The notes: a model not told the origin generated them from the sequence alone. A DNA stretch of 64,000 nt from Novosphingobium sp. (GCA_031383985.1 JANNAE010000009.1:76051-140050); one strand, 5' to 3'; counted from the first letter of the stretch, positions 22,487 through 39,373 are shown. Numbers and translations: made by a program.

Positions 22487-24673
22487 TCACGGCAAGGGGA
22501 AATTCTCCCCGAAAATCAGCTTGGGTTCGCCGCAGATTGCGCGCGAGGCTTCCATGCCCGACATGGTCGCTGCCTCGACACAGCCATAGTTGAGCCCGGT
22601 GTGAGTCCAGTCGCCCGCCAGCTTGAGATTGGCATAGCCTGAATTCCCGGCTCGCAGCCGATACTGGGTCGAGCCCTTGACCGAAAGGACATAGCGCTCG
22701 GAAGGGTCGACATTGGCCCGCCAATACTGCTGGTTGAAATGATCGCTGGCCGGTTTGCCCGTTTGTTCCGCTCCGTAAAGCACAGCGAAGTCAAGCGTAT
22801 CGGGAAAGCTCTCAGGATAGCCGGCGAACATCGAGCCAGGCAGAATGAACTGCGCATTGCTGCGCATCCATTCCGACGCGCGAACGTTGGCGGCGGCATC
22901 TTGATACGCCGGGTAGAAGAAGCTGTCCGGCTTGGGGATCCCTTTTTCGAGCGGGAGCGGTCCGCAGAAATAATAGATCGCTTTGGGCTCGTTGCCGGCC
23001 GGCCAGTTCTCCCGCGGGAGCAGATGCGACATGTCGGCAATCGTGTTGTGCGGCTGGGCAAAACCGCCGTAGATCGGCCGCACCGGCTTGTCCTCCAGCT
23101 CCTCGCCATCGGGGGCTTTGCGTAAGCTTTTATCGTCCAGATTGGTCCAGATCTGGAACGCCTGCGTCCCGATTACCTCGACATTGTCACACATCGCCTG
23201 CCATTCGGGCTTTTGCCTGAGCAACTGCGGACAGATGATCGGGATCGGACCCAGCGAAGTGCCCAGAACCACCTCATCGAAATCCTCACCCACTTTCAGG
23301 GTGTCGGTGCGGACATCGGGCCAGTTGTTCCAGTAGGATTCCAGATTGATGCGATTGCCCGCAATTTTGTCCCCCTCGACCAGCTGATCGAGGAACGGTT
23401 CGCTGGGCCAGCAATCCAGCCCTTTTACCGAATAGAGCGGGCTGTAATCCTTGCCATCCGTGCCATCCTTAATCGTCGCTTGTCGGCCGATGGTGATCGC
23501 CTCGATCCGGGTGCCGTCGGCCGAGGGGATGACTTCGCGAACGATACTGAAGAATTCGAACTTCACCCCACGCGCTTTGAGAACCTCATAGAACGGCACG
23601 AACATGGTGTCCCCCATCCCGGCCTGCATCTTCCAGGCAAACGCCTCCTTGTAAGTGAAGCTCAGCCGCAGCAGCCCGCGCAAGCCGGTGCCGGCCGCCA
23701 GATCGGGCTTGGCATAGGAACCCTGCGAGAAGGCGAAGATGCTCTCATAGGCCACCCGCAACGAATCTGAATCGAGCGCCACCGATTGCGCGCCATGGCT
23801 CGCCAGCCACTCGCGCAGATCGAGGTGATCGAGCTGATCGAAACCCTTGTTCGCCACATCATCGACGATGATGCCTTTGAGCATGTAGAAACTCAGCTCG
23901 ACCAGCGAAAGAATCCGCCGCAGGATCGGGATTGCTTCGACATCGTTCTCGATCATCGCATCGATCCGGCGATTGACCGCCGCACCAACCTTTTCAACGA
24001 ACTGCTCACACTCTTTGAGTGCCTCGAGCAGCAATCCCTGCGCTGTGCCTGTGTCCGGATTCGAGGCTGCCAGCTTGATCAGGTCGCGGGCCGCCGCAAG
24101 GCTCAATTCCTCCACATCCTTGATCGCGGCCAGTCCGATCCGGCGCAACAGTCGGTGGAACCAGCCGCCAGCCGCGCTCGGCGCACCGGGCATGGCGCCC
24201 TCCACATGGATATGCAGCCCATGCAGCAGCCGGTCGATCAGCTCCCAGAAGGTCGGGATCGTCCCGTCCCCCGGTACGCCGCTGAGCGGCGGCGGGGAGA
24301 GGTGCCATTCGGACCACTGCGCCTTATTGAACTGCATCAGGATGAACAGGCTGTGCGGCTTGAAGGCATCGCGCCAGGTCGCCAGCGGCTGATCGGGCTT
24401 GCGGTCCAGCGCGGCATAGACCCGCTGGATGATGTTGAAGGCATTCTCATAATAGCCGAACCAGAAGTGCAGCCCGTGTTCCTCGATCCGGTCGCCTTGC
24501 TTGCGATTGCGGCCGCTTGCGCCTTTGCCGCCGAGTCGCCAACCCATCTGGTAGACGGTGATCGCATATTTGTCCTGCCAGCCGGGTTGTTCGGTCAGCT
24601 CGAATGCGGTGGTCATCGCGCCGACGCCGCCGCCCAGAATCGCAATCTTCTGCTTTGCCGGAGTATCAACCAT
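22487..24673 (-). CDS. large NAD(P)/FAD-binding oxidoreductase (amine-oxidase / desaturase superfamily), specific function unknown
   Basis: KIAILGGGVGAMTTAFEL dinucleotide-binding motif, then GGKGAS...EHGLHFWF. The start at 24673 has an upstream GGAAGG and overlaps the preceding gene's stop by 8 bp. Confidence 0.75.
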   Translation of the reverse strand: MVDTPAKQKIAILGGGVGAMTTAFELTEQPGWQDKYAITVYQMGWRLGGKGASGRNRKQGDRIEEHGLHFWFGYYENAFNIIQRVYAALDRKPDQPLATWRDAFKPHSLFILMQFNKAQWSEWHLSPPPLSGVPGDGTIPTFWELIDRLLHGLHIHVEGAMPGAPSAAGGWFHRLLRRIGLAAIKDVEELSLAAARDLIKLAASNPDTGTAQGLLLEALKECEQFVEKVGAAVNRRIDAMIENDVEAIPILRRILSLVELSFYMLKGIIVDDVANKGFDQLDHLDLREWLASHGAQSVALDSDSLRVAYESIFAFSQGSYAKPDLAAGTGLRGLLRLSFTYKEAFAWKMQAGMGDTMFVPFYEVLKARGVKFEFFSIVREVIPSADGTRIEAITIGRQATIKDGTDGKDYSPLYSVKGLDCWPSEPFLDQLVEGDKIAGNRINLESYWNNWPDVRTDTLKVGEDFDEVVLGTSLGPIPIICPQLLRQKPEWQAMCDNVEVIGTQAFQIWTNLDDKSLRKAPDGEELEDKPVRPIYGGFAQPHNTIADMSHLLPRENWPAGNEPKAIYYFCGPLPLEKGIPKPDSFFYPAYQDAAANVRASEWMRSNAQFILPGSMFAGYPESFPDTLDFAVLYGAEQTGKPASDHFNQQYWRANVDPSERYVLSVKGSTQYRLRAGNSGYANLKLAGDWTHTGLNYGCVEAATMSGMEASRAICGEPKLIFGENFPLP

Positions 24674-25649
24674 TGGCCGCCGCCTTCCAGACTTCGCGCC
24701 CGGCACCGATGGTGAAATCGAAATTGACCCAGAAGCCGAGCTCAAGCGGGACCGTTCCCGGCGCAATCCCCAGATCGCTGGCCAGCGGGTGGCTGTCATA
24801 TTCGGCGATTGTCGCGCTATAGCTGCCGTGCAGCAGCCCGCCCGAATGGAATGCGGTGACGAACGACCCCGCCTCGATCACCGCCTGATAGCTCGCCCTT
24901 GTGCCATCGGCAGCGTCGCGGAACTGGCGCAGGAACACGCCCGGCACTTCCTTGCGGGTCGCCAGGCTGACGATATCCTCGATCAGGCTCAGCCCCGGCA
25001 CGATCCACTGCCCGCCGCCAACCACCATATGGGCAATCGCCCCGATTGCCTCGCCGGCATCCGTCCAGATCGTTTCAGCGCGGGTCTGCGCCGCGATTTG
25101 CTGAACCTCGATCAACGGCGCGATCACGCCCTCATTTTGCGGGCCGAATGTCTTCATCACCAGCGTCGCGGCCGAGAAACTGGTGGCAGCTTCGCCCTGT
25201 TTGGGGATCACCAGCGGGCCATAGCCCTTGGGAAAGCCATAGACCTCGCGCCCCGCAGCCAGCGACCAGCTGTTATCGACGCAGATATAGGCGGGATACA
25301 TCACCAGCCGCTGGCCCACGGTAAAGCCCAGTTCGTGCTTGACCTCGACCAGCGGAATCCACAGCGTCCAGCTGTTCTCGGGGACCCAGCCGATCCCGTT
25401 ATCGGGCGGCAAGGTGCTGGTGCCCTGCGCGGCATAGGCGAACGACAGCAGCACCATGTCGCTCAGCACCCGGTAATCCAGCGCGCCGCCGGTGGGGGCA
25501 TTGAGGATCGGATCGACCAGCCGGGCCTGCATGATCGCGGCATCGGCCTTGAGGTAAAAACCATACATCTGCGTGTTGCGGCAGGCATAGGGCTGGAGAT
25601 GGACCGATTCGGCTGGACGGCGGATATAGGCAGGGAGATCGTCGCGCAT
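24666..25649 (-). CDS. acetoacetate-decarboxylase-like (ADC fold) protein, function unknown
   Basis: The motif VDNSWSLAAGREVYGFPKG resembles the GRE-x-WG-x-PK signature of the ADC family. An AAGGA RBS precedes the ATG at 25649. Confidence 0.55.
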   Translation of the reverse strand: MRDDLPAYIRRPAESVHLQPYACRNTQMYGFYLKADAAIMQARLVDPILNAPTGGALDYRVLSDMVLLSFAYAAQGTSTLPPDNGIGWVPENSWTLWIPLVEVKHELGFTVGQRLVMYPAYICVDNSWSLAAGREVYGFPKGYGPLVIPKQGEAATSFSAATLVMKTFGPQNEGVIAPLIEVQQIAAQTRAETIWTDAGEAIGAIAHMVVGGGQWIVPGLSLIEDIVSLATRKEVPGVFLRQFRDAADGTRASYQAVIEAGSFVTAFHSGGLLHGSYSATIAEYDSHPLASDLGIAPGTVPLELGFWVNFDFTIGAGREVWKAAANG

Positions 25650-25660
25650 CGCATCATCCT

Positions 25661-27358
25661 TCAGATATGACCGTCCCAGGGCAGGCCCTGGTCGAAACGG
25701 CGTTTGTCGTGCCACCGGAATGGAGCGAAGATCCCGGGCTCGTGCAGCGGCCACAGCTCGCACGGATCGGCGCTCGAGCCGAACAGCGTGAGCAACCCGT
25801 TGACCGCCCGGCGCGCCGCTTCGTTGGCCGCTTCCATGCACGCGACATCGGTGAAGCTGCGGACATAGTCGGAGGCCAGAACCATGTTCGAGGTCGCGGT
25901 GACCGCCTCCGGGCGGAGCGCCCAGCTATTGATGAAATTGACAAACAACGGCTCGGCATCGGTCAGGGTCAGCTTGCCGCCGCTCGATTGGACCAGATCG
26001 GGGTCGAGGAAATGGCTGTGGACATTGGCATTGGTGAGGATTTCCTGGCCTTCGACATTGACCGATTTCTTGATCTGGGCCCAGACTTCCTGCGCAATTT
26101 CCTCACGCGTGCAGTCCAGCGCCGTCTTGCCAAAGACAATCCCGGGCGCATTCCAGCACGAGATGCAGGCCGAAAGGATCCCGCGCACGGTGCCGTCCCC
26201 ACATTGCGGCAGATGCTCTTGCGACCAGAACTGCGCCTCGGAGATCGAGGTCAGCGCCCACGGCGTGTCCGAATAGAGTACATGGCCATGCGCGATCGGG
26301 ACATCCTGAAACAGGAAGAACTGAATCCCGTTCATCCACCGCACATTGGCGGCGATCTGGAGAATATTGGCCAGTGCCGGATCGCCTTTTTGCGGATCAT
26401 CTGGGCCGCCCGCACTGTTGGTCAGCAGCTCACCCATCCGCTCGACCGGGAGTGCAAAGATATAGGCATCGCCGGTCACTTGATGGGTGCCGCCAGGGCC
26501 GGTTAGCGATGCCGAGGTGACCTGTCCGCCGGCAATACCGAAGCTATCGACCGACTCGCCCAAATGGAAGATGACGCCCAGTCCTTCGAGGTGCTGGCGC
26601 CAGGGTTCGAGCCAGACCTTGCTGGTCGGTCCGTTTAGCAGCCGGTCGGTCGGATGGCCGGGGGCGAGCATACCCAGCAGCAGCTGGATATTGGTATCGC
26701 CCACCGTCCGGACACTGGCATGGACCGGATCATTGGCGAGCAAAGACCGTGACAAGCCATCGACCAGCAGGGTCTGATAGGCCCGCGAATGGCGGCCGGC
26801 CTCGAGATAATTCCACCAGGTGATCTTTTCATATTCGCCCAGCCGGCGTTCCGCACAGCTGGTCAGGATCTGCCACAACCGTTCGGCGAAGAACTTTGCC
26901 TCGCCCGGCAGCAGCCCGGTATCGCCATCGAACAAGGCTTCGAAATCGGTAACGAGGTCTGAAATCGACTGGGGAAAGCGGGAGGATATGACGATCGGCG
27001 GCTTGTCGAACCGGGCGACTTCCATCCGATCTGCGACTACCAGATTTTCAAACACGCTTGCGGTGCCATAGGGAATGCGCCCCATCGTATCGGGCAGATG
27101 CTTGTAAAAGCCCGGAAAAAACCGGAAACCATGTTCCCCCGGCAGCGGATCGCGGCCACCGGTGGCCGAGTTCGGCACCGCAATGCTGCGTGCCTTGCCG
27201 CCCACTGCATGGTCACGCCTGTCATAGACGTGAATTTCGAAATCGACGCCAAAGCCGCTGCGTTCGGCAAGCTCGTGCGCAGCGCTCAGTCCGGCAACGC
27301 CGCCGCCCAGCACAATGATCTTTTTGGTCGCCACAAATCCCCCCTTGCAACGATGCAA
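25661..27358 (-). CDS. NAD(P)/FAD-binding oxidoreductase (phytoene-desaturase / amine-oxidase-like), function unknown
   Basis: KIIVLGGGVAGLSAAHELAE...VYDRRDHAVGGKARS...GEHGFRFFPGFY. The true start may be the GTG at 27334 (VATKK), which is preceded by AAGGGGGGA. Confidence 0.78.
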   Translation of the reverse strand: MHRCKGGFVATKKIIVLGGGVAGLSAAHELAERSGFGVDFEIHVYDRRDHAVGGKARSIAVPNSATGGRDPLPGEHGFRFFPGFYKHLPDTMGRIPYGTASVFENLVVADRMEVARFDKPPIVISSRFPQSISDLVTDFEALFDGDTGLLPGEAKFFAERLWQILTSCAERRLGEYEKITWWNYLEAGRHSRAYQTLLVDGLSRSLLANDPVHASVRTVGDTNIQLLLGMLAPGHPTDRLLNGPTSKVWLEPWRQHLEGLGVIFHLGESVDSFGIAGGQVTSASLTGPGGTHQVTGDAYIFALPVERMGELLTNSAGGPDDPQKGDPALANILQIAANVRWMNGIQFFLFQDVPIAHGHVLYSDTPWALTSISEAQFWSQEHLPQCGDGTVRGILSACISCWNAPGIVFGKTALDCTREEIAQEVWAQIKKSVNVEGQEILTNANVHSHFLDPDLVQSSGGKLTLTDAEPLFVNFINSWALRPEAVTATSNMVLASDYVRSFTDVACMEAANEAARRAVNGLLTLFGSSADPCELWPLHEPGIFAPFRWHDKRRFDQGLPWDGHI

Positions 27359-27478
27359 GCCTGGTTGCTGCTGCGTTGCGACCCTAATGCACCGCTACCG
27401 ATGGTTAAGGTTGCGCAAACCGGCAGGCAATGCAAGGAAATGCACTTATTTTAACGGATTGGCAGAACGTCGCACTTC

Positions 27479-27507
27479 TCGACGGTTCGGCGATTCACCG
27501 TTACAAT
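27479..27507 (+). promoter_or_regulatory. sigma70-like promoter candidate (TCGACG, 17-nt spacer, TACAAT) upstream of the TIR gene
   Basis: Spacing was counted directly. It is followed by a tandem GCGCGGAGG GCGCGGAGG (27517-27534), whose second GGAGG lies 7 nt before the TTG start. Confidence 0.3.
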
Positions 27508-27541
27508 CACAGAGGGGCGCGGAGGGCGCGGAGGAACGGGC

Positions 27542-30500
27542 TTGCCGGACATTTTTCTATCCTACAGCCGGGACGACCAGCAGCGGGCGCGCGACTTCGC
27601 CGAGGCGCTGCTGGCCGAGGGATTCGATGTCTGGTGGGATGTCGCGCTCAAGACCGGTGAGGCCTATGACGAGGTCACCGAAACCGCCCTGAATACCGCA
27701 AAGGCAGTGATCGTGCTGTGGTCGCAGCGCTCGGTCAAGTCGCGCTGGGTCCGGGCCGAGGCCACCGTCGCCCAGCGCAATCGCAGCTTCGTGCCGGTGA
27801 TGATCGAAGATTGCGTCCGCCCGGTAATGTTCGAACTGACCCAGTCAGCCGATCTCATTGCCTGGCAGGGCGATGTCGCCACTCCGGCGTGGAAGGGCTT
27901 TCTGGCTGACCTCAAGCACCGCATCGGCAGCGTCGCGGTGCCCGCCGCTGCGCCAAAACCTGCGCCAGCGGCGCCACATGGCAGCGAGCGGCGGCTGGTT
28001 GCCGTGCTGGATTGCGCGCTGGCGATGCAGGCCACCGGCGACGAATTCGATCCGGAAGACTGGGATGCGGCGGGGCAGCAGCTGCTCACCCGGGCGCAAA
28101 AGGTTCTGGAGCAGCATGACTGCCGGATCGTTGCCGGCGGAGGCAGGCTTGCCGCGCTGTTCGGCGCCGAGCGCACCGGCGAGGACGATGCCTTGCGGGC
28201 GGTCCAGGCGGCGCTGGCGCTGATCGAACACGTCGGCGAGATCGCGCTGCCCGGCGGCGAACGGGCGCGCCCGCGGATCGGGATCGACTTCGGGCCGCTG
28301 GTGATCGGCGGGCTTGCGCGAACCCCCTCGGGCGCGGCGGTGGAGGGCGCGGCGCGGCTCCAGCTGCAGGCGGCGCCGGGCAGCGTCTCGATCAGCCGGG
28401 CGGTGGCGAATGTCGCGGGTGGTTATCTTGCGCTGGAGCGGCAAGGCAACGCCGACTTTACCGTACTGGGCGTGACGGGAACCCATACCCGCTTTGAGTT
28501 ATCGCGGGCGCGCGGGCTCAGCCGGTTTGTCGGCCGCAGCGCCGATTTCGATCTGCTTGGCACAGCTCTGGACCAAGCCAGCGCCGGCCACGGCCAGGTG
28601 GTCGGGATCATGGCCGAGGCCGGAACCGGCAAGAGCCGGCTGTGTTTTGAATTCATCGAGGCCGCTGAAGCGCAAGGCATCTCGGTATTTCGCGGCAGCG
28701 CCACGGCGCAGGGCGGCAGCACCCCGCTATTTGCGGCGCTTGATCTGCTGCGCTCATTCTTTGGCATCGATAGCCAGGACGATGCCGCCACCGCCCGCAT
28801 AAAAATCGAAACCCGCGCCACCGAACTTGACCCTCGTCTGGTTGAAAACCTTCCCGCCATGTTCGATCTGCTGGCGGTTCCCGATCCGGAGCGGCCCGCT
28901 CCGCCGCTCGACCCGGAAGGCCGCCAACGGCAATTGCTTGCGCTCACCCGCCATCTCCTCAAGCTGGCCGGGGAAGTGCAGCCGACCATCGTGCTGGTCG
29001 AGGATCTGCATTGGCTCGATCCGGCCAGTGCCGTCTTCGTCGAAGGGCTGGTCGAGGCCAATGAGGGGCTGCGCAACTTGCTGCTGCTCAACTACCGGCC
29101 CGAGTTCCGCCCGAGCTGGCTGCAAAACAGCGCCTGCCGCCAGATTGCCCTGAAACCGCTGGATCAGGACCATCTGGCCGAATTGCTGGCCGATCTGCTG
29201 GGGGATGATCCCGGTGTCGCACCGCTGTTCGCGCCGATTGCCGAGAAGACCAGCGGCAACCCCTATTTCGTCGAGGAAATCGTCCAGACCTTGCTCGAAA
29301 CCGGCAAGATCGAAGGGACCAAGGGCGATTATCGGCTTATCGGGGTGTATTCTGGCCTCGACCTTCCCCCCACGGTCCGCGCGGTGGTCGCAGCGCGAAT
29401 TGACCGGCTGGAGGCCCGCGAGCGCGATCTGTTGCAGCTCGCTGCGGTGATCGGGCCCAGTTTTTCCGAACCACTGCTCGCCGCCGCCTCCGGCCTCAGT
29501 GCCGGCGAGCTGGGCAGCGCGCTCGACAATTTGCGGCGCACCGGGTTCATCGTCGAACAGGCGGTCTTTCCTGTGGCCGAACATGGCTTCAAGCACCCGC
29601 TGACGCTGGAAAGCACCCTCGCCAGTCTGGTCAAGGCCCGGCGGCGCGCGCTTCATGCGACAGTCGCAGGCGCGATCGAGGCAGACAAAACGGCGCAAGC
29701 GGGAGCCAAGGCGCTCCGTCTGGCCTGGCATTGGGATGAAGCGGGTGAGGCTGTTCCAGCGGCTCTGTGGCATTTGCGCGCGGGCGAGCATGTCGTGCGC
29801 ACCGATTTTCCTGCCGCTTCCCGGCATTGGCAGCGGGTCCGCGCGCTCTGCCGTGAGGCCGGGGACAATCCGGTGGCCGCACAGCTGTTTGTCGGTGCCT
29901 CGATCCAGCTGTTGAATACCGCACACCGGCTGGGGATCGATCTGGCCGAAGCAATGGCGATCCTCCAGGCCGGTGAGGAAATGCTCGGGGCCGAGGGCGA
30001 CGCCGGTTTGCGGCTGGTGCTGTCGATGTGTTTTTCACGGGCGCTGTGCGCTGCAGGCGATGTCGGCGCCTATCTCGCGCTGGCGCAGGACAATCACGCC
30101 AAGGCGATGGCCAGCGGCGAATTGCGGCTGCAGATCGTCGCCAAGATCAGGCTCTGCGATGCCCTGTCGCACAGCGGCGCGCACCGCGAGGGACTGGCGG
30201 CATCGGAAGCGGCAATGGCGCTTTATTCGCGCGATCTGGCCCGGCCGGAGTGGCTGCCCGATTTTCATCCCAACACGTTCTTTGCCTTCATGCGCGGAAT
30301 CTCGCTGACCTGGCTGGGCCAGCTCGATGAGGCCGAGCGGCAGCTGCGCCAGGTGATCGTCGATGCCACCGCCGATGAAACCCCCGAGGTGATCGCCTGG
30401 GCCTGCTATGCCCTGTCGCACTGCTATTATTGCAAGGGCGAGCCCGATCAGGCCCTGGCCAGCGCGACCAGAGTGGGCGAGATCAGCGAGCTGCTCGGCT

Positions 30501-31039
30501 CGCCGCTGCTGGTGTCTTATCGGTATATGGCGCATGTCTGGGCGGCGTTGGCGGGTGGTCAGCATGCCAAAGCCCTCGAAAACGCCCGCGCCGCAGTCGA
30601 GCTGTTCGGAACGGTCGAGCAGCATTGGGCCGCCGCGGCGCGGATGCTGGTCGCCCGCGCATTGCTCGAGCTGGGTCACCACGGCCAAGCAGCCGAAATG
30701 GCCGAAGCCGCTGTGACCGGGTTTCAGGATTGCAGCATCAAGCATTTCGAGATCGAGGCGTGGGGGGTCCTCGCCCGGGCCTGGCTGGCGCAAGGCGGGG
30801 CTCAGGCAGCGGCAGCAAGTGCCGGCGCACTGGCCAAGGCCGAGGATGTGATGGAGGTGGCGGGCCTTGAAGTGATGCGCCCGTTCCTGGCCGAATGGCA
30901 GGCCGAACTGGCTGGTCACGAGCGCGATCAACCCGCGCGCCGGGCGATGCTGGCCAAAGCCGCTGCCGCCCATAACGGCAACGGCGCGCCGCGCCACGCC
31001 CGGCGAGTCGAGCAGCAGCTGGCTGCGCTCGGCACCTGA
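27542..31039 (+). CDS. TIR domain + degenerate class III cyclase-like domain + STAND/AAA_16 P-loop ATPase + TPR-like C-terminal region (1165 aa)
   Basis: TIR: MPDIFLSYSRDD...VIVLWSQRSVKSRWVRAEA. Cyclase-like: ERRLVAVLDCAL...GGGRLAALFG...RIGIDFGP. Walker A GIMAEAGTGKSRL and Walker B TIVLVEDLHWLD. About 650 aa of helical repeat follow, with no terminal HTH. TTG start with a GGAGG RBS. Confidence 0.85.
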   Translation: MPDIFLSYSRDDQQRARDFAEALLAEGFDVWWDVALKTGEAYDEVTETALNTAKAVIVLWSQRSVKSRWVRAEATVAQRNRSFVPVMIEDCVRPVMFELTQSADLIAWQGDVATPAWKGFLADLKHRIGSVAVPAAAPKPAPAAPHGSERRLVAVLDCALAMQATGDEFDPEDWDAAGQQLLTRAQKVLEQHDCRIVAGGGRLAALFGAERTGEDDALRAVQAALALIEHVGEIALPGGERARPRIGIDFGPLVIGGLARTPSGAAVEGAARLQLQAAPGSVSISRAVANVAGGYLALERQGNADFTVLGVTGTHTRFELSRARGLSRFVGRSADFDLLGTALDQASAGHGQVVGIMAEAGTGKSRLCFEFIEAAEAQGISVFRGSATAQGGSTPLFAALDLLRSFFGIDSQDDAATARIKIETRATELDPRLVENLPAMFDLLAVPDPERPAPPLDPEGRQRQLLALTRHLLKLAGEVQPTIVLVEDLHWLDPASAVFVEGLVEANEGLRNLLLLNYRPEFRPSWLQNSACRQIALKPLDQDHLAELLADLLGDDPGVAPLFAPIAEKTSGNPYFVEEIVQTLLETGKIEGTKGDYRLIGVYSGLDLPPTVRAVVAARIDRLEARERDLLQLAAVIGPSFSEPLLAAASGLSAGELGSALDNLRRTGFIVEQAVFPVAEHGFKHPLTLESTLASLVKARRRALHATVAGAIEADKTAQAGAKALRLAWHWDEAGEAVPAALWHLRAGEHVVRTDFPAASRHWQRVRALCREAGDNPVAAQLFVGASIQLLNTAHRLGIDLAEAMAILQAGEEMLGAEGDAGLRLVLSMCFSRALCAAGDVGAYLALAQDNHAKAMASGELRLQIVAKIRLCDALSHSGAHREGLAASEAAMALYSRDLARPEWLPDFHPNTFFAFMRGISLTWLGQLDEAERQLRQVIVDATADETPEVIAWACYALSHCYYCKGEPDQALASATRVGEISELLGSPLLVSYRYMAHVWAALAGGQHAKALENARAAVELFGTVEQHWAAAARMLVARALLELGHHGQAAEMAEAAVTGFQDCSIKHFEIEAWGVLARAWLAQGGAQAAAASAGALAKAEDVMEVAGLEVMRPFLAEWQAELAGHERDQPARRAMLAKAAAAHNGNGAPRHARRVEQQLAALGT

Positions 31040-31055
31040 TCATGCGAAGGAGAGG

Positions 31056-33023
31056 ATGATCACCACCAAGTCCCCCGCCACCGATCTCACAGCCCCGCCG
31101 CTGCGTTTGACCATCGGCATTACCGGTCATCGGGAGTCGAACCCCGCCTTTGCCGCCAATCGCGATGCGATTGCGGCGACGGTCGCGGCGCTGTTTGCCG
31201 AATTCGATCAGGTTGCCGGGAAAGTTCGCCCGCGCTTGCACAGTCTGCTGGCCAATGGCTCCGACCTGACCGCGGTTGAGGCGGCCTTGTCGCTCGACTG
31301 GCAGATTTGCGCGCCTTTGCCGTTCGGGCTTGACCTCAACATCGCGATCAATGCCATGCCGGCCAACGCCGGGGAAGGCCTCCGGTTGCTGGCCGGCGAC
31401 AGGTTCGGCGATTCTCCCGCTTTCGAACGCGCACGCCAGATCGCCAAGCTGGCCGAGCATTGCGAACGGTTTGAACTGGCCGAAGCGGATGAGCCAATCA
31501 CTGAGTTGTTTATCACCGCGCTTCATGCACCCGATGACCTGGCGGCGCATCAGGCCTGGTCAACTGCCGCGTCCGATCGGGCGGCGCTGGCGGGACGGGT
31601 GATGATCGAACAGTCCGACCTGGTCATCGCAATCTGGGACGGCGAGACTCCCGGGATGATCGGCGGAACCCGGCACACCATCATCGCCGCGCTTGAGCAA
31701 GGAGCCCCCGTGGTGTGGATCGATGCCCGCGCACCGCACGGCTGGCACATCCTCGATGGCCCGGAAATGCTGGCCGATCTGCCTCAGGCGGCCGCGCGGG
31801 CGCCGCATGCATCGCGTGCCGCTCTGCGCAAGATCGTCACCCATGTGCAGGGCAGCGAACATACCGGCGGCGGCGAGAATTTCGGCAATGCCGCCTGGCG
31901 TCCCCACAGTCGCCGCCGGTTCCATGCCTACCGCCGGGTCGAGGCGTTGTTTGGCGCGGTTGGCGTGGGCAAGCGGCTGGCGCGGCTGCAACAACACTAT
32001 GAACTGCCCGCAGAAGTTGCCGCAGGATCAGGCGCAAAGCTGCTCAAAGCAGCGCGGGACTTGCCGGGTGGCGATGTCCGAATGGTGGCTGAAATCGAAA
32101 CTTCGATCCTGCGCCGCTTCGCCTGGGTCGATGGCCTTTCGACCTATCTGTCCGATGCCTACCGGGGCGGCATGGTCGCAAGCTTCCTGCTGTCGTCGCT
32201 GGCAATCATCGGCGGGATTGCCTATTTGCCGTTCGTCGCTGTCAGCTGGAAATGGCCCTTCGCCTTGTTCGAGTTCCTGCTGCTGGTCGGGATTCTTGCG
32301 ATCACCGCGATCGGCAATCGCCGCGAATGGCACAACCGCTGGTTCGAAACCCGCCGCGTGGCCGAGTATCTCCGCCATGCTCCGATCCTGCTGCTGCTGG
32401 GCGTAGCGCGCGCGCCGGGGCGCTGGCCCAGTGGCGCGCGGACCAACTGGCCGGAATTCTATGCGCGAAGTCTGCAGCGCGAAATCGGCTTGCCACGGGT
32501 CCGGTTGGACGAGCCCTATCTGCGCGCCTTGCTCGGCGATCTGCTGCGGCCGCATGTCGTCGCCCAGCGCGATTATCATCGCAGCAAGGCCAGTCGGCTC
32601 GGCCGGGCGCATCATAACCTCGATCGCCTGTCAGAGGCTTTCTTTCTTCTCGCGGTCGTTGCGGTGGCGAGCTATCTGGCGGTCGTGGTGTGCGCACGGC
32701 TCGGCCTGGTCCCACATTCGCTCGATTATGCCCTGGCCAAACCGCTGACTTTCCTTGGCGTATTGTTCCCGACCCTGGGCGGTGGCATTGCCGGAATTCG
32801 TTATTTTGGCGATTTTGAACGCTTTTCCGCCATTTCCGAAGTGACCGCCGAAAAGCTTGACGCGATCGAGCGGCGGATCAGCAGACTGATGGCCGCCCCG
32901 CCCGGAGGGATGAATTTTGCCCGGGTCAGCAGTCTGGCCCACGCTACCGATGATGTGGTGGTGACCGAGATCGAGAGCTGGCAGGCGGTGTTCGGCGGCA
33001 AGCATATTACCGTGCCAGTTTAG
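31056..33023 (+). CDS. SLOG-like Rossmann domain fused to a four-TM SLATT-like membrane module (655 aa)
   Basis: The N-terminus has LRLTIGITGHR, NGSDLTAVEAAL and LVIAIWDGETPGMIGGTRHTIIAALEQGAPVVWID (LOG/DprA/YpsA-like pattern). TM helices: MVASFLLSSLAIIGGIAYLPFV, PFALFEFLLLVGILAITAIG, AFFLLAVVAVASYLAVVVCA and LTFLGVLFPTLGGGIAGI. The ATG lies 16 bp after the TIR gene stop and is preceded by GAAGGAGAGG. Confidence 0.8.
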   Translation: MITTKSPATDLTAPPLRLTIGITGHRESNPAFAANRDAIAATVAALFAEFDQVAGKVRPRLHSLLANGSDLTAVEAALSLDWQICAPLPFGLDLNIAINAMPANAGEGLRLLAGDRFGDSPAFERARQIAKLAEHCERFELAEADEPITELFITALHAPDDLAAHQAWSTAASDRAALAGRVMIEQSDLVIAIWDGETPGMIGGTRHTIIAALEQGAPVVWIDARAPHGWHILDGPEMLADLPQAAARAPHASRAALRKIVTHVQGSEHTGGGENFGNAAWRPHSRRRFHAYRRVEALFGAVGVGKRLARLQQHYELPAEVAAGSGAKLLKAARDLPGGDVRMVAEIETSILRRFAWVDGLSTYLSDAYRGGMVASFLLSSLAIIGGIAYLPFVAVSWKWPFALFEFLLLVGILAITAIGNRREWHNRWFETRRVAEYLRHAPILLLLGVARAPGRWPSGARTNWPEFYARSLQREIGLPRVRLDEPYLRALLGDLLRPHVVAQRDYHRSKASRLGRAHHNLDRLSEAFFLLAVVAVASYLAVVVCARLGLVPHSLDYALAKPLTFLGVLFPTLGGGIAGIRYFGDFERFSAISEVTAEKLDAIERRISRLMAAPPGGMNFARVSSLAHATDDVVVTEIESWQAVFGGKHITVPV

Positions 33024-33024
33024 A

Positions 33025-34023
33025 CTAAGGCCCTTCTAGCGCGAGCAGTGCAAAGGTCGCCAGCCAATGCTCGCCCATGAAATCATCGGCGAGATGCGGC
33101 AGTGCAGCGGCGAGATGTTGCCGGGCCGTCGCGCGCGCGGGAGCGATCACCGGATGGCCAGCGGGCAGCGATGCCGCGATCTGCCGCCAGCACCACGCGC
33201 GGCTCAGGTTCAGCCCGTCGAGATGCGCGATCTTGCCGTCGCTGCGGTCTGAGACCGTGGCGGGGGTAAACAGCGTGATTGGCTGCTGCGTGGCGGCGGC
33301 GGGCAGGAACAGGTCGAACCAGGCGGCAAACTCTGCGGCGGGCAGGACCCGGCTCATCACCAATGCCTCGCACAGGGCAGAAGAGAGAAACTCGTCGCCC
33401 CCCGGCTCCCACGCCTGACAGGCACGATCGGCGCTGAACCATTCGCGCGTGCGAGCCTCGATCAAACCGGCCAAGGCGGGATCATGCCGGGTTGCCCAGT
33501 CATGGGCCAGCGTCATCGCAAACGCGCTGTTGTAATGCGTGCCGACGCGGATCGGATACGTCTGCTTGGGCAGGAAATCATGGAACCGCGCGGCAAAGGC
33601 CCGGGCGAAAGCTTCGGCATGAGCCGCCCACGGCTCTGCGCTGTGCCGGGCAAGCTCGCCGTGCAGCGCCAGCGCCCACCCCCAGCCATAAGGCCGCTCA
33701 AACCCGCGCGCCGATGGCCGGGCAAGATAGGAGGTTTCACCTGCGAAGTTCGCTGCCGTCAGCATTTCACCAGCCTTGGCTCGCACGGCGGCGGCTTGCG
33801 GCAGTTCGGGAAAGAGCCGGGCGAGCCGCAGCACTTGCCACCAGCCGTGAACGCAGCTGTGCCAATCGAAGCTGCCGTGGAAGATCGGATGGAGCTGCGC
33901 CGGTGTCGCGGCGTCGTCCGGTCCGTCCATGACATGATCGAGCTTATGCGGATATTCGCGGGTCAGATGCCCCAGCGTCAGCGTCATGAACTGCGCGGCG
34001 ATTGCGGGAGTCAGACGGCTCAT
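33025..34023 (-). CDS. DUF2891 family protein
   Basis: MSRLTPAIAAQFMTLTLGHLTREYPHKLDH...HPIFHGSFDWHSCVHGWW. The start ATG forms an ATGA overlap with the DUF979 stop. The 666-aa ORF in the track is an out-of-frame upstream read-through. Confidence 0.8.
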   Translation of the reverse strand: MSRLTPAIAAQFMTLTLGHLTREYPHKLDHVMDGPDDAATPAQLHPIFHGSFDWHSCVHGWWQVLRLARLFPELPQAAAVRAKAGEMLTAANFAGETSYLARPSARGFERPYGWGWALALHGELARHSAEPWAAHAEAFARAFAARFHDFLPKQTYPIRVGTHYNSAFAMTLAHDWATRHDPALAGLIEARTREWFSADRACQAWEPGGDEFLSSALCEALVMSRVLPAAEFAAWFDLFLPAAATQQPITLFTPATVSDRSDGKIAHLDGLNLSRAWCWRQIAASLPAGHPVIAPARATARQHLAAALPHLADDFMGEHWLATFALLALEGP

Positions 34024-34958
34024 GGGAAAGCCAGCCACCAGATCAGTGCGATATTGACCGCCAGCAGCGGCAACGCCGTGCCAATTTGCGCCTTCACCAC
34101 CGCATTGCGGTCTGCCAGGTCCAGCAATGCTGCGGGCACGATGTTGAAATTCGCTGCCATCGGCGTCATCAGCGTGCCGCAAAACCCCGCCAGCATCCCG
34201 ATCGCGGCAATGATTGCGGGATCGCCGTGATATTGGTGGACCAGCAGCGGCAGGCCGATCGCAGCGGCCATCACCGGGAAGGCGGCAAAGGCATTGCCCA
34301 TCACCATGGTGAACAGCGCCATGCCGAGCCCGTAGGCGAGCACCGCACCAAGCAAGCTGCCACCCGGGATCACCCCCGACATCAGCTGGCCAACCACCTG
34401 CCCCACCCCGGCCAGCGCAAACACCGCGCCAAGGCTGGCCAGCATCTGCGGTAGGACCGCCGCCCAGCCAACCGCGTCCATCAGCCGCCGCCCTTCTTCG
34501 AGCGGCACCAGCCCTGGCGGGCGAAGCCAGGCCAGGCCGATGATGAGCGCAAGGATCACCCCGAGCGCCAGGCTGACCAGCGTCACCTGTTTGGGTTCGA
34601 CCAGTGCGGGCAAATATTCGAACAACAGCGTCCCGATCAGCGCAGTGGCCGGGATGACCAGCGCGAGCAGGAACAAGCGGTTGCCATGCTTGGCTGCCCC
34701 GGCCTGCCGCTCTTCCACCAGGCTGTCGTCGGTGCCGCGCCCCAGCCCGCGCAGCCCGGCAATGCCCACCAGCGCCAGCACCAGCAGGCCATTGCCAAAA
34801 TCGCCCAGCCGGTCCCCTGCCAGCATGCTCAGTGCCAGCAGACCCCAGAAGGCCGCATTGGCGAGCCGCTTGGGATTGGTGGAATCGCCCACCGACAGAG
34901 CGGCAAAGGCGGCGAAGGTCAGCCCCGCCAGGGTGTAGACAAACGGGAGACCGATCAT
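34020..34958 (-). CDS. DUF979 family membrane protein
   Basis: Polytopic hydrophobic sequence starting MIGLPFVYTLAGLTFAAF. It has ATGA overlaps with both neighbouring genes. Confidence 0.8.
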   Translation of the reverse strand: MIGLPFVYTLAGLTFAAFAALSVGDSTNPKRLANAAFWGLLALSMLAGDRLGDFGNGLLVLALVGIAGLRGLGRGTDDSLVEERQAGAAKHGNRLFLLALVIPATALIGTLLFEYLPALVEPKQVTLVSLALGVILALIIGLAWLRPPGLVPLEEGRRLMDAVGWAAVLPQMLASLGAVFALAGVGQVVGQLMSGVIPGGSLLGAVLAYGLGMALFTMVMGNAFAAFPVMAAAIGLPLLVHQYHGDPAIIAAIGMLAGFCGTLMTPMAANFNIVPAALLDLADRNAVVKAQIGTALPLLAVNIALIWWLAFP

Positions 34959-35637
34959 GATCCGGCCCCCTGCCCCAGCTGCCGCGCCGCCAGCTTGCGA
35001 TCCAGCCGCCACAGCCGGAAGGCATGGATCACAAAGGCGGCGATCGCGGTGGGGATCGCCCAGATCGACAGGTCGAACGGACTGAGGACGATGCCTTGTT
35101 GCTCAAGAAACCCCTTCATCAGCAGGATCGAGCCGATCGCGATGAAGATATCCTCGCCAAAGAACAGCCCGACATTGTCGGTCGCGGCGGCCATCGCCTT
35201 GACCTTGTCGCGCGTTGCGGGATCCAGCGGGGCAGTCACCTCGGCCGCCGCCTCGGCCATCGGCGCAACCAGTGGCCTGACGGTCTGAGCATGGCCCGCC
35301 ACCGAAGTCAGCCCCAGCGCGGCGGTGATCTGGCGCAGCAGCAGATAGCCGGTCAGCAGCCGTCCGGTGGTGGCACCCTTGAGCCCGGCGATGAGCGCGC
35401 GGGCGCGTTCCTGAAGACCATGACGTTCGAGCAAGCCGATCACCGGCAGCACGATCCACACCACGCTGACATAGCGGGTATCGTTGAACGCCTTGCCGAA
35501 CGCGGAGACGATCGCGTGCAGATCGAGCCCCGCCGCGAGCCCGGTGACCGCAGCGGAGGCGACCACCACCAGCAGCGGATTGAAGCGCAGGACAAAGCCC
35601 GCCACAATCACTGCAATACCCAGCAAAACCCACATCG

Positions 35638-35641
<4 letters not shown>
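34955..35641 (-). CDS. DUF969 family membrane protein
   Basis: MTMWVLLGIAVIVAGFVLRFNPLLVV. The GTG start overlaps the oxoprolinase stop (GTGA). Confidence 0.8.
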
Positions 35642-39267
<3,626 letters not shown>

Positions 39268-39373
39268 GGCGTGGTGATTGGCGCAGCCCCCGCAAAAGCA
39301 CAATACCAGCTCGTGATTGGTTTCCACTGTAACCAGTGATAGGAGCCGAAACTATTCAAGGAGAGCCGCGCCA

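Follow-up and report, generated by a model that had tools for sequence, protein, structure and literature searches.

A candidate Thoeris-like nucleotide-signaling module pairing a TIR-STAND protein with a SLOG-SLATT membrane protein in Novosphingobium

A 64,000-nucleotide stretch of DNA from Novosphingobium sp. (GCA_031383985.1, JANNAE010000009.1:76051-140050), hereafter the window, carries two adjacent genes that encode a TIR domain on a large STAND scaffold (gene 1) and a SLOG-fold domain fused to two SLATT membrane units (gene 2). Both open reading frames (ORFs) had been picked out in a first-pass annotation of the sequence and were confirmed by an ORF listing (Table 1). The six domains named there (TIR, cyclase, AAA_16, TPR, SLOG, and SLATT) hold up in Pfam, NCBIfam, AlphaFold, and Foldseek searches, with weak support for the TPR region. 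As had also been noted, gene 2 starts 16 bp downstream of gene 1 with its own ribosome-binding site, AAGGAGAGG, and because of this short spacer and site the two genes are implied to be co-transcribed as an operon. Divergent from gene 1 lies a cluster of genes for FAD-oxidases and an acetoacetate decarboxylase (ADC)-like protein.

Table 1. Features of the locus, with positions counted from the first nucleotide of the window
Feature	Position	Strand	Basis
Gene 1: TIR + pseudo-cyclase + AAA_16 STAND NTPase + TPR-like tail, 1165 aa	27542..31039	+	ORF, Pfam, NCBIfam
TIR domain, aa 4-106, candidate catalytic Glu E73	27551..27859	+	Pfam TIR_2, E 3.2e-20
Degenerate class III cyclase-like domain, ~aa 144-296	27971..28429	+	Pfam Guanylate_cyc, PDB 2w01 (E 9e-5)
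AAA_16 STAND P-loop module, aa 328-515	28523..29086	+	Pfam AAA_16, E 1.1e-19
C-terminal helical TPR-like region, aa 516-1165	29087..31036	+	Weak TPR_12; TOMM_kin_cyc alignment as far as aa 1108
Spacer, 16 bp, with ribosome-binding site	31040..31055	+	Sequence reading
Gene 2: SLOG-fold domain + two SLATT two-helix transmembrane units, 655 aa	31056..33023	+	ORF, AlphaFold, NCBIfam
SLOG-fold Rossmannoid domain, ~aa 17-233	31104..31754	+	Foldseek + invariant loops
SLATT unit 1, aa 349-471	32100..32468	+	NCBIfam SLATT_1, Pfam DUF4231 (E 3.5e-4), hydropathy
SLATT unit 2, aa 501-644	32556..32987	+	NCBIfam SLATT_1, AlphaFold helices, hydropathy
Divergent intergenic region, oxidase/ADC cluster vs gene 1	27359..27541	.	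ORF coordinates
FAD/NAD_binding_8 amine-oxidase-like protein, 565 aa, candidate accessory gene	25661..27358	-	Pfam
ADC-like protein, ~327 aa, candidate accessory gene	24666..25649	-	Partial Pfam ADC, E 3.7e-8
Large FAD/NAD_binding_8 + Amino_oxidase-like protein, up to 770 aa, candidate accessory gene	22487..24799	-	Pfam

Gene 1 is read from a TTG codon, a start that is credible because GGAGGAA precedes it and because orthologues begin with the identical sequence MPDIFLSY. Full-length orthologues are 39-82% identical to gene 1. The candidate catalytic residue of its TIR domain, E73, is unchanged in an alignment of 15 members of the gene 1 TIR subfamily and is in register with the Glu of the RWVRYE motif in ThsB from B. 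cereus MSX-D12. In the domain that follows, aa 180-292 match Pfam Guanylate_cyc (E 1.4e-5; 25.2 bits against a cutoff of 21.9), and comparison with PDB 2w01 places Ala and Gly where the two metal-binding Asp residues would be; since both are replaced, the domain is predicted to be a pseudo-enzyme. The STAND module features the Walker A motif AGTGKS at aa 360-365, including K364, and the Walker B motif VLVEDLHWLD at aa 484-493. Helical repeats in the tail are weakly recognized (TPR_12, E 2.6e-4, under the Pfam cutoff). No helix-turn-helix family matches gene 1 at E<=1 in Pfam, and no DNA-binding domain was detected. In each of these respects, namely the positions of E73 and K364, the degenerate cyclase, and the missing helix-turn-helix, the first-pass annotation was borne out.

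The body of gene 1 has a recognizable ancestry. NCBIfam TOMM_kin_cyc aligns with aa 125-1108 (E 3.3e-67, far under the family cutoff), and on account of this alignment the body can be assigned to the cyclase-AAA_16-TPR "large ATPase" lineage. LAL/SARP-like and TOMM kinase/cyclase regulators of the "large ATPase" type align over the same residues, whereas gene 1 differs from them in a cyclase stripped of its metal-binding Asp residues, in the lack of a DNA-binding domain, and in having a TIR as its output. Relatives of the body at 38-50% identity carry a zinc ribbon/DZR, BTAD, or Trans_reg_C domain at the N-terminus and no TIR, and many of them retain a cyclase domain detectable by Pfam. Because these relatives place other domains there, the N-terminus seems to be a slot for exchangeable outputs on a sensory scaffold, occupied in gene 1 by the TIR.

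The AlphaFold model of the gene 2 protein is confident (pLDDT 88.5, pTM 0.86; 33 homologues used). The best Foldseek matches of its N-terminal domain are YpsA (2nx2; TM-score by target 0.62, prob 1.0), a LOG-like protein (1rcu; 0.56, prob 1.0), and DprA (3uqz), all of which are members of the SLOG superfamily. No Pfam or NCBIfam profile matches aa 1-338, so the assignment of a SLOG fold is a structural one, backed by loops that are invariant in the family alignment (T23-G24-H25-R26, W194-D195-G196, and G203-G204-T205..H207). Profile searches had been proposed as a check on the domain calls: they support TIR and SLATT, while SLOG was recovered by fold search and not by sequence profile. The C-terminal half contains four helices with transmembrane character, as judged from the model and hydropathy. 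Hydropathy places two of them in SLATT unit 1 (~378-396 and 402-420), and unit 2 comprises a transmembrane helix at ~528-546 and a Gly-rich helix at ~554-585. When the units are scanned alone, SLATT_1 matches each of them (E 1.2e-5 for unit 1; E 6.5e-5 for unit 2, covering model positions 6-130 of 132). Against the whole protein, it scores E 6.1e-10 and 39.2 bits, with a cutoff of 41 that a Caulobacteraceae orthologue (L042) clears at 47.1 bits. DUF4231 also matches members of the family. An internal duplication of the SLATT unit is not detectable by BLASTP (E 0.59) and is seen through the separate profile matches.

The fold of gene 2 also lends itself to an enzymatic reading, in which the SLOG domain would be a LOG/YpsA-like enzyme acting on N-glycosidic bonds to produce or break down a nucleotide-derived molecule at the membrane, with the TIR protein as the second enzyme of the pathway. 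The SLOG superfamily includes LOG-clade hydrolases and some members predicted to be signal generators (PMC9503650, PMC7159879). A LOG-like protein is among the best structural neighbors, the glycine-rich loops are invariant, and a PDB profile search with the N-terminal domain gave a marginal match to nucleoside 2-deoxyribosyltransferase (E 0.25). The nearest structure, however, is YpsA, whose clade is linked to cyclic ADP-ribose (cADPR) sensing, and fusion to pore-type SLATT units is what a ligand-gated effector would be expected to show, in line with the SLOG and SLATT effectors already known. An enzymatic role for gene 2 is thus regarded as quite improbable.

Homologues of gene 2 form a large and sporadically distributed family, with >1600 clusters at 90% identity and 3023 at 50%. 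There are 329 matches in a collection of 185,579 species genomes, mostly in Sphingomonadales, Caulobacterales, and Hyphomonadaceae, with a few in Gamma- and Betaproteobacteria and one in an Acidobacteriota metagenome-assembled genome (MAG). This sparse distribution over several orders rules out gene 2 as a core sphingomonad gene. Identity is flat at 50-57% whatever the taxonomy, which suggests that the family has spread horizontally.

The association between the two kinds of protein extends well beyond the window. In a survey of 80 genome loci that hold a gene 2 homologue, a TIR ORF lies within reach in 56; of the 43 loci flanked by >=5 kb in each direction, 32 have a TIR gene no more than 8 kb away and 17 have it directly adjacent. 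TIR genes are rare in bacterial genomes, and for this reason we infer that their frequency near gene 2 is far above chance. One group of TIR partners consists of ~650-aa TIR-FlgO-like-TPR proteins, mostly divergent from gene 2. In the other, the TIR is ~55-73% identical to that of gene 1 and sits on FlgO-like and TPR domains, often in tandem, or on an NB-ARC-like STAND with TPRs. The layouts are independent of one another: divergent TIR-FlgO-TPR, co-directional single or tandem TIR-FlgO-TPR, and TIR-NB-ARC-TPR. In some partners, the TIR and the FlgO-like/TPR part are separated by a predicted transmembrane helix; these calls use a crude hydropathy threshold that Gly/Ala-rich class A linkers may escape, and the fraction with such a helix is a lower bound. 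A metagenome locus (L089) copies the layout of the window, with gene 1 55% and gene 2 50% identical and a 2-bp spacer, and at such identities the pair has probably been inherited together across deep divergence. Neighbor conservation, which the first-pass annotation had proposed as a test, is thus found in the form of a TIR near gene 2 and of the L089 pair, while the accompanying expectation of defense islands was disappointed. This conserved neighborhood makes a functional link between the gene 1 TIR subfamily and the SLOG-SLATT family well supported at the level of gene order. Domain anatomy, operon-like spacing, and conserved association are direct observations.

Three further observations concern the TIR partners themselves. 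A TIR-NB-ARC-like STAND-MalT-like TPR scaffold of 867 aa occurs in L054 (2263-4866), L058, and L140 (9995-12598), and in loci of the Caulobacter/Brevundimonas type, TIR-NB-ARC-TPR genes are immediate neighbors of the gene 2 homologue. Diverged TIR-FlgO-like-TPR paralogues stand in tandem, two or three to an array, in metagenome loci (L090, L093-L098, L100, L110, L128, and L156) and in genome loci (L029, L060, and L068). Some of these arrays end in a gene 2 homologue; in others, no such gene lies within 10 kb. In Novosphingobium sp. RL4, whose genome is complete, a divergent TIR-FlgO-TPR/gene 2 pair occupies ~490.8-494.9 kb of a 1.8 Mb chromid (L171; NZ_CP141945.1 483920-503860), where the gene 2 homologue, 50% identical, lies at 492920-494860 and the TIR-FlgO-TPR gene 125 bp upstream in the divergent orientation. 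The PLSDB gene table for NZ_CP141945.1 lists one annotated feature in the whole record and none in 483920-503860.

We hold with moderate confidence that genes 1 and 2 belong to a Thoeris-like nucleotide-signaling module that runs from TIR to SLOG-SLATT. In this proposal, the AAA_16 STAND of gene 1 would act as a switch, with the TPR-like tail and the dead cyclase sensing a trigger that leads to oligomerization. Once gathered, the N-terminal TIR domains would become active on NAD+ through E73 and yield an ADP-ribose (ADPR)-derived signal, in keeping with established TIR behavior. The SLOG domain of gene 2, the fold of which is evident from the model, would bind this signal. Its SLATT units would then pass into a membrane-permeabilizing or channel state that causes cell arrest or death, by analogy with the SLATT effectors of CBASS and type VII Thoeris. 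Elsewhere, the same TIR subfamily on FlgO-like/TPR or NB-ARC/TPR scaffolds appears to feed the same effector family, and the oxidase/ADC-like cluster probably belongs to the system as an accessory. Conflict or anti-phage defense is the most likely role, and of all parts of the proposal it is the least supported.

Precedent for such a module comes from several directions. The SLOG domain of ThsA binds 3'cADPR (Yirmiya et al., bioRxiv, December 2025, 10.64898/2025.12.03.692087), type VII Thoeris consists of a TIR protein and the SLATT effector ThsH with cADPR as the signal (10.64898/2025.12.03.692087), and SLATT as a nucleotide-responsive pore former, together with TIR-SLOG coupling, was predicted by the Aravind group, as related in PMC9503650 and PMC7159879. 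Type I Thoeris employs the SIR2-SLOG effector ThsA, and type III combines several TIRs with a SLOG effector (10.64898/2025.12.03.692087). The pairing of TIR-STAND with SLOG-SLATT had been put forward in the first-pass annotation as uncharacterized, and it is still unvalidated as such; the wider claim of uncharted ground is outdated by type VII and by the putative "SLOG and 4TM" class, since TIR+SLATT and TIR+SLOG logic are already known. Two features general to Thoeris systems are present here, a TIR with a Glu at the catalytic position and a conserved neighboring effector with a SLOG fold.

None of the known systems matches the module in full. Like type VII Thoeris, it joins a TIR generator to a SLATT-domain membrane effector, but ThsH is annotated with SLATT only and has ligand pockets predicted between SLATT protomers, whereas in gene 2 two SLATT units follow a separate N-terminal SLOG domain. 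Type VII TIRs show no detectable relationship to the TIR subfamily of gene 1 (E 0.03-0.5 against the subfamily profile). With types I and III the module would share a SLOG domain as receiver of a TIR-made ADPR-derived signal, and with type III the use of several TIR paralogues per effector, here as tandem arrays; unlike type I, its output is a four-helix transmembrane SLATT module and not SIR2. Among the TIRs of the preprint, that of gene 1 most resembles the ones whose partners are SLOG effectors, although all of the similarities are weak; the nearest are TIR1 and TIR4 of type III (32-37% identity). Gene 2 matches none of the Thoeris effector models in NCBIfam, and the gene 1 TIR reaches 26.7 bits against ThcB4, for which the cutoff is 220.

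The closest outline is that of the "SLOG and 4TM" (or "4TM SLOG") class, in which a TIR gene stands beside an effector with SLOG and four transmembrane helices; the match to gene 2 is one of description. Effectors of the class include IMG genes 2862473379 and 2691454910. The TIR of gene 1 is weakly similar to the Streptomyces TIR of this class (28% identity, E 6e-6). The class differs in having small TIR proteins from defense-island-enriched TIR clusters, whereas the TIR here sits on a 1165-aa pseudo-cyclase-STAND-TPR protein, or on FlgO-TPR elsewhere, with no defense-island context found. Homologues of the "4TM SLOG" TIR at 55-64% identity lie on short contigs, and the one examined (L170) lacks an effector. 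Avs and bacterial NLR-like STAND proteins resemble gene 1 in their N-terminal effector or output, STAND NTPase, and C-terminal repeat sensor. Avs proteins, by contrast, act alone with a TIR regarded as an NAD+-depleting effector, while gene 1 belongs to a TOMM_kin_cyc-like lineage and has recurrent SLOG-SLATT and oxidase/ADC partners.

A number of observations weigh against the proposed module, and the first of them concern the linkage of its two genes. None of four gene 1 orthologues checked on long contigs (L085-L088, from N. aquiterrae, a Novosphingobium MAG, Qipengyuania, and Phenylobacterium) has gene 2 within 8 kb. In the opposite direction, seven syntenic Novosphingobium relatives have no TIR within 8 kb of gene 2, and these orphan copies, which sit between ABC-F and PutA, are under purifying selection with dN/dS of ~0.10-0.13. 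Since TIR-less copies stay under such selection, gene 2 does not seem to require a TIR in cis. An unbiased TIR-side scan of metagenome contigs, many of them short, yielded 80 loci, of which 16, L089 included, contain gene 2. A distant branch of the gene 2 family (~30% identity) shows no TIR on the single contig with readable content. The four gene 1 orthologues and the seven relatives speak against a complete two-gene chain as a fixed unit, as the pair had been described. Because each gene occurs without the other nearby, the link between TIR and gene 2, if it is real, must often work in trans.

These separations raise the possibility that genes 1 and 2 are independent, with gene 1 as an Avs/NLR-like STAND protein bearing an NAD+-depleting TIR, or as a partner of the oxidase/ADC cluster, and gene 2 as an unrelated membrane protein that was already at the site. 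TIRs on STAND proteins (Avs) have been treated as NAD+-depleting and left out of Thoeris (10.64898/2025.12.03.692087), and in the seven relatives the site is occupied by gene 2 with no gene 1, the window being longer by an 8.6 kb block. By the single-gene arrangement of Avs, the orthologues are divided: four gene 1 orthologues lack gene 2 nearby, and the window and L089 have it directly downstream. Among the former, oxidase/ADC genes lie beside three of the four and gene 2 beside none. Independence is nonetheless improbable, given that the same TIR subfamily recurs beside gene 2 in many unrelated genomes on different scaffolds, that L089 repeats the gene 1-gene 2 pair, and that oxidase/ADC genes share an operon with gene 2 in Caulobacteraceae. 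On account of this shared operon, association of gene 1 with the oxidases and association of gene 1 with gene 2 are not alternatives to one another. Chance insertion beside a resident gene 2 was likewise set aside as the principal explanation in view of L089 and the Caulobacteraceae operons.

The oxidase/ADC-like cluster bears on the proposed module in its own right. As listed, the ADC-like ORF extends to 25841, but orthologues of 315-328 aa favor a start at MRDDLP. The cluster is divergent from gene 1 in three of the four orthologues checked, where L085 and L088 have three genes in the order oxidase, ADC-like, oxidase, and L087 has the ADC gene and one large oxidase; with L089 and L091, the divergent arrangement is known from five loci. 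Orthologues of the 565-aa oxidase adjoin gene 1 orthologues in L085, L088, L089, and L091. The large oxidase recurs with the TIR gene, gene 2, or both in L042, L043, L057, L062, L082, L085, L087, L088, L091, L112, and L114. In Caulobacteraceae (L042, L043, L057, and L062), the order is TIR(-), oxidase(+), ADC(+), gene 2(+), with the latter three as one operon in which the ADC-like gene directly precedes gene 2; in L042 and L043, its stop overlaps the start of gene 2. The ADC-like gene and the large oxidase appear in a third arrangement in L082, and beside TIR-FlgO-TPR genes in L112 and L114.

That this association is kept despite shuffled gene order argues for a functional link of the cluster to the TIR and gene 2. 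Because the cluster recurs with genes 1 or 2 in this way, the module is probably larger than two genes, and the original two-gene scope had overlooked this third partner. No PDB relatives of the oxidase and ADC-like proteins were found, PADLOC holds no models for them, and their NCBIfam matches, such as HpnE and carotene desaturase, are N-terminal and at the Rossmann level only.

The genomic setting is the remaining ground for doubt. The window is syntenic with Novosphingobium MAG contigs (L001, L005-L010) at 72-87% nucleotide identity, across ABC-F, gene 2, PutA, an AMP-binding enzyme, and 3HCDH. Compared with these seven relatives, it has two extra blocks, at ~22.5-31.05 kb and ~33.0-39.3 kb; the first is the 8.6 kb block that holds the oxidase/ADC cluster and gene 1. 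Its neighbors are metabolic (ABC-F, oxidoreductases, DUF2891, DUF979/DUF969, oxoprolinase, and PutA), and no defense-gene enrichment, a general mark of Thoeris systems, was found with PADLOC and a Pfam scan among 136 neighbor ORFs of 41 loci. PADLOC matches to multi-member systems (mad3, AriA, PtuA, and GajA) trace to about six neighbor proteins, as do the Pfam ABC_tran/ABC_tran_Xtn matches. Since the number of proteins is the same, these look like cross-hits of ABC-F ATPases, a reading based on the equal counts. Beyond ABC-type matches, one or two single PADLOC matches are left among the 136 neighbors.

Searches of 2.9 million viral contigs returned no relatives of gene 2 or the TIR subfamily, and the sole plasmid match is the 1.8 Mb chromid, which is non-mobilizable. 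PADLOC (2023), which had been suggested as a check, has no model for gene 2. Two examples of the "SLOG and 4TM" class have been tested in E. coli and gave no defense (10.64898/2025.12.03.692087, Tables S1, S2). The earlier description of a defense system that causes abortive infection thus finds no support from context.

An alternative possibility is that the TIR serves non-immune second-messenger signaling. The TIR would then be the output of ordinary sensors (STAND/TPR or (TM)-FlgO-like-TPR, TM denoting a transmembrane helix) for an envelope, metabolic, or environmental cue; gene 2 would be a ligand-gated channel that tunes physiology and does not kill, and the oxidase/ADC proteins would belong to the same regulated pathway. 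This would account for the housekeeping or metabolic contexts without defense enrichment, the lack of carriage on phage or mobile plasmids, and the fixed position of gene 2 under purifying selection in seven Novosphingobium genomes. The helix between TIR and FlgO-like/TPR in some partners is like that of transmembrane sensors, and scaffold relatives have DNA-binding or cyclase-type outputs typical of regulation. Recurrent linkage with metabolic-looking FAD-oxidase/ADC genes, including the ADC-gene 2 overlap, points the same way. On the other hand, all characterized bacterial TIR-signal systems have so far been anti-phage (10.64898/2025.12.03.692087), and SLATT effectors are known as modules that kill cells. 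The sporadic distribution over several orders at flat identity suggests horizontal spread, and tandem arrays of diverged TIR-sensor paralogues resemble the diversification of immune receptors; both tell against a housekeeping role and are typical of conflict systems. On balance, non-immune signaling is unlikely, but it is the most credible of the alternatives.

In a more specific form, this would be an alphaproteobacterial pathway with interchangeable STAND-TPR, NB-ARC-TPR, and (TM)-FlgO-like-TPR sensors, in which the TIR product gates a SLOG-SLATT channel and the oxidase/ADC enzymes make the cue or process the signal. So stated, the idea is unlikely too, and marginally less probable than the general one; if true, such a non-immune four-part pathway would be a system without a described counterpart.

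Whichever role applies, the locus is unusual for its TIR on large sensor scaffolds, its recurrent oxidase/ADC partner, and its lack of defense-island context. If the Thoeris-like module works as proposed, it would open the "SLOG and 4TM" effectors to functional study for the first time, a class that has so far been predicted and has tested negative. It would also mean that large STAND or periplasmic-type sensor scaffolds, and not just small ThsB proteins, can drive a TIR signal generator. The missing defense islands, together with the stable position and the oxidase/ADC partner, raise the question of whether TIR-derived nucleotide signaling in bacteria serves immunity alone, and the cultured strain Novosphingobium sp. 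RL4, which has the pair, makes this question testable.

Two minor observations concern the surroundings of the genes. The second extra block of the window (~33025-39327, minus strand), between gene 2 and PutA, holds DUF2891, DUF979, DUF969, and a 1229-aa hydantoinase/oxoprolinase; a listed 666-aa ORF at 33025..35025 is probably an artefact, as it covers the gene for DUF2891 (33025-~34050) and overlaps that for DUF979. In four of the 41 loci (e.g., L003, 4547-6040), genes for trypsin-like serine proteases lie immediately beside the TIR/gene 2 pair, and these may be chance neighbors or a further accessory gene.

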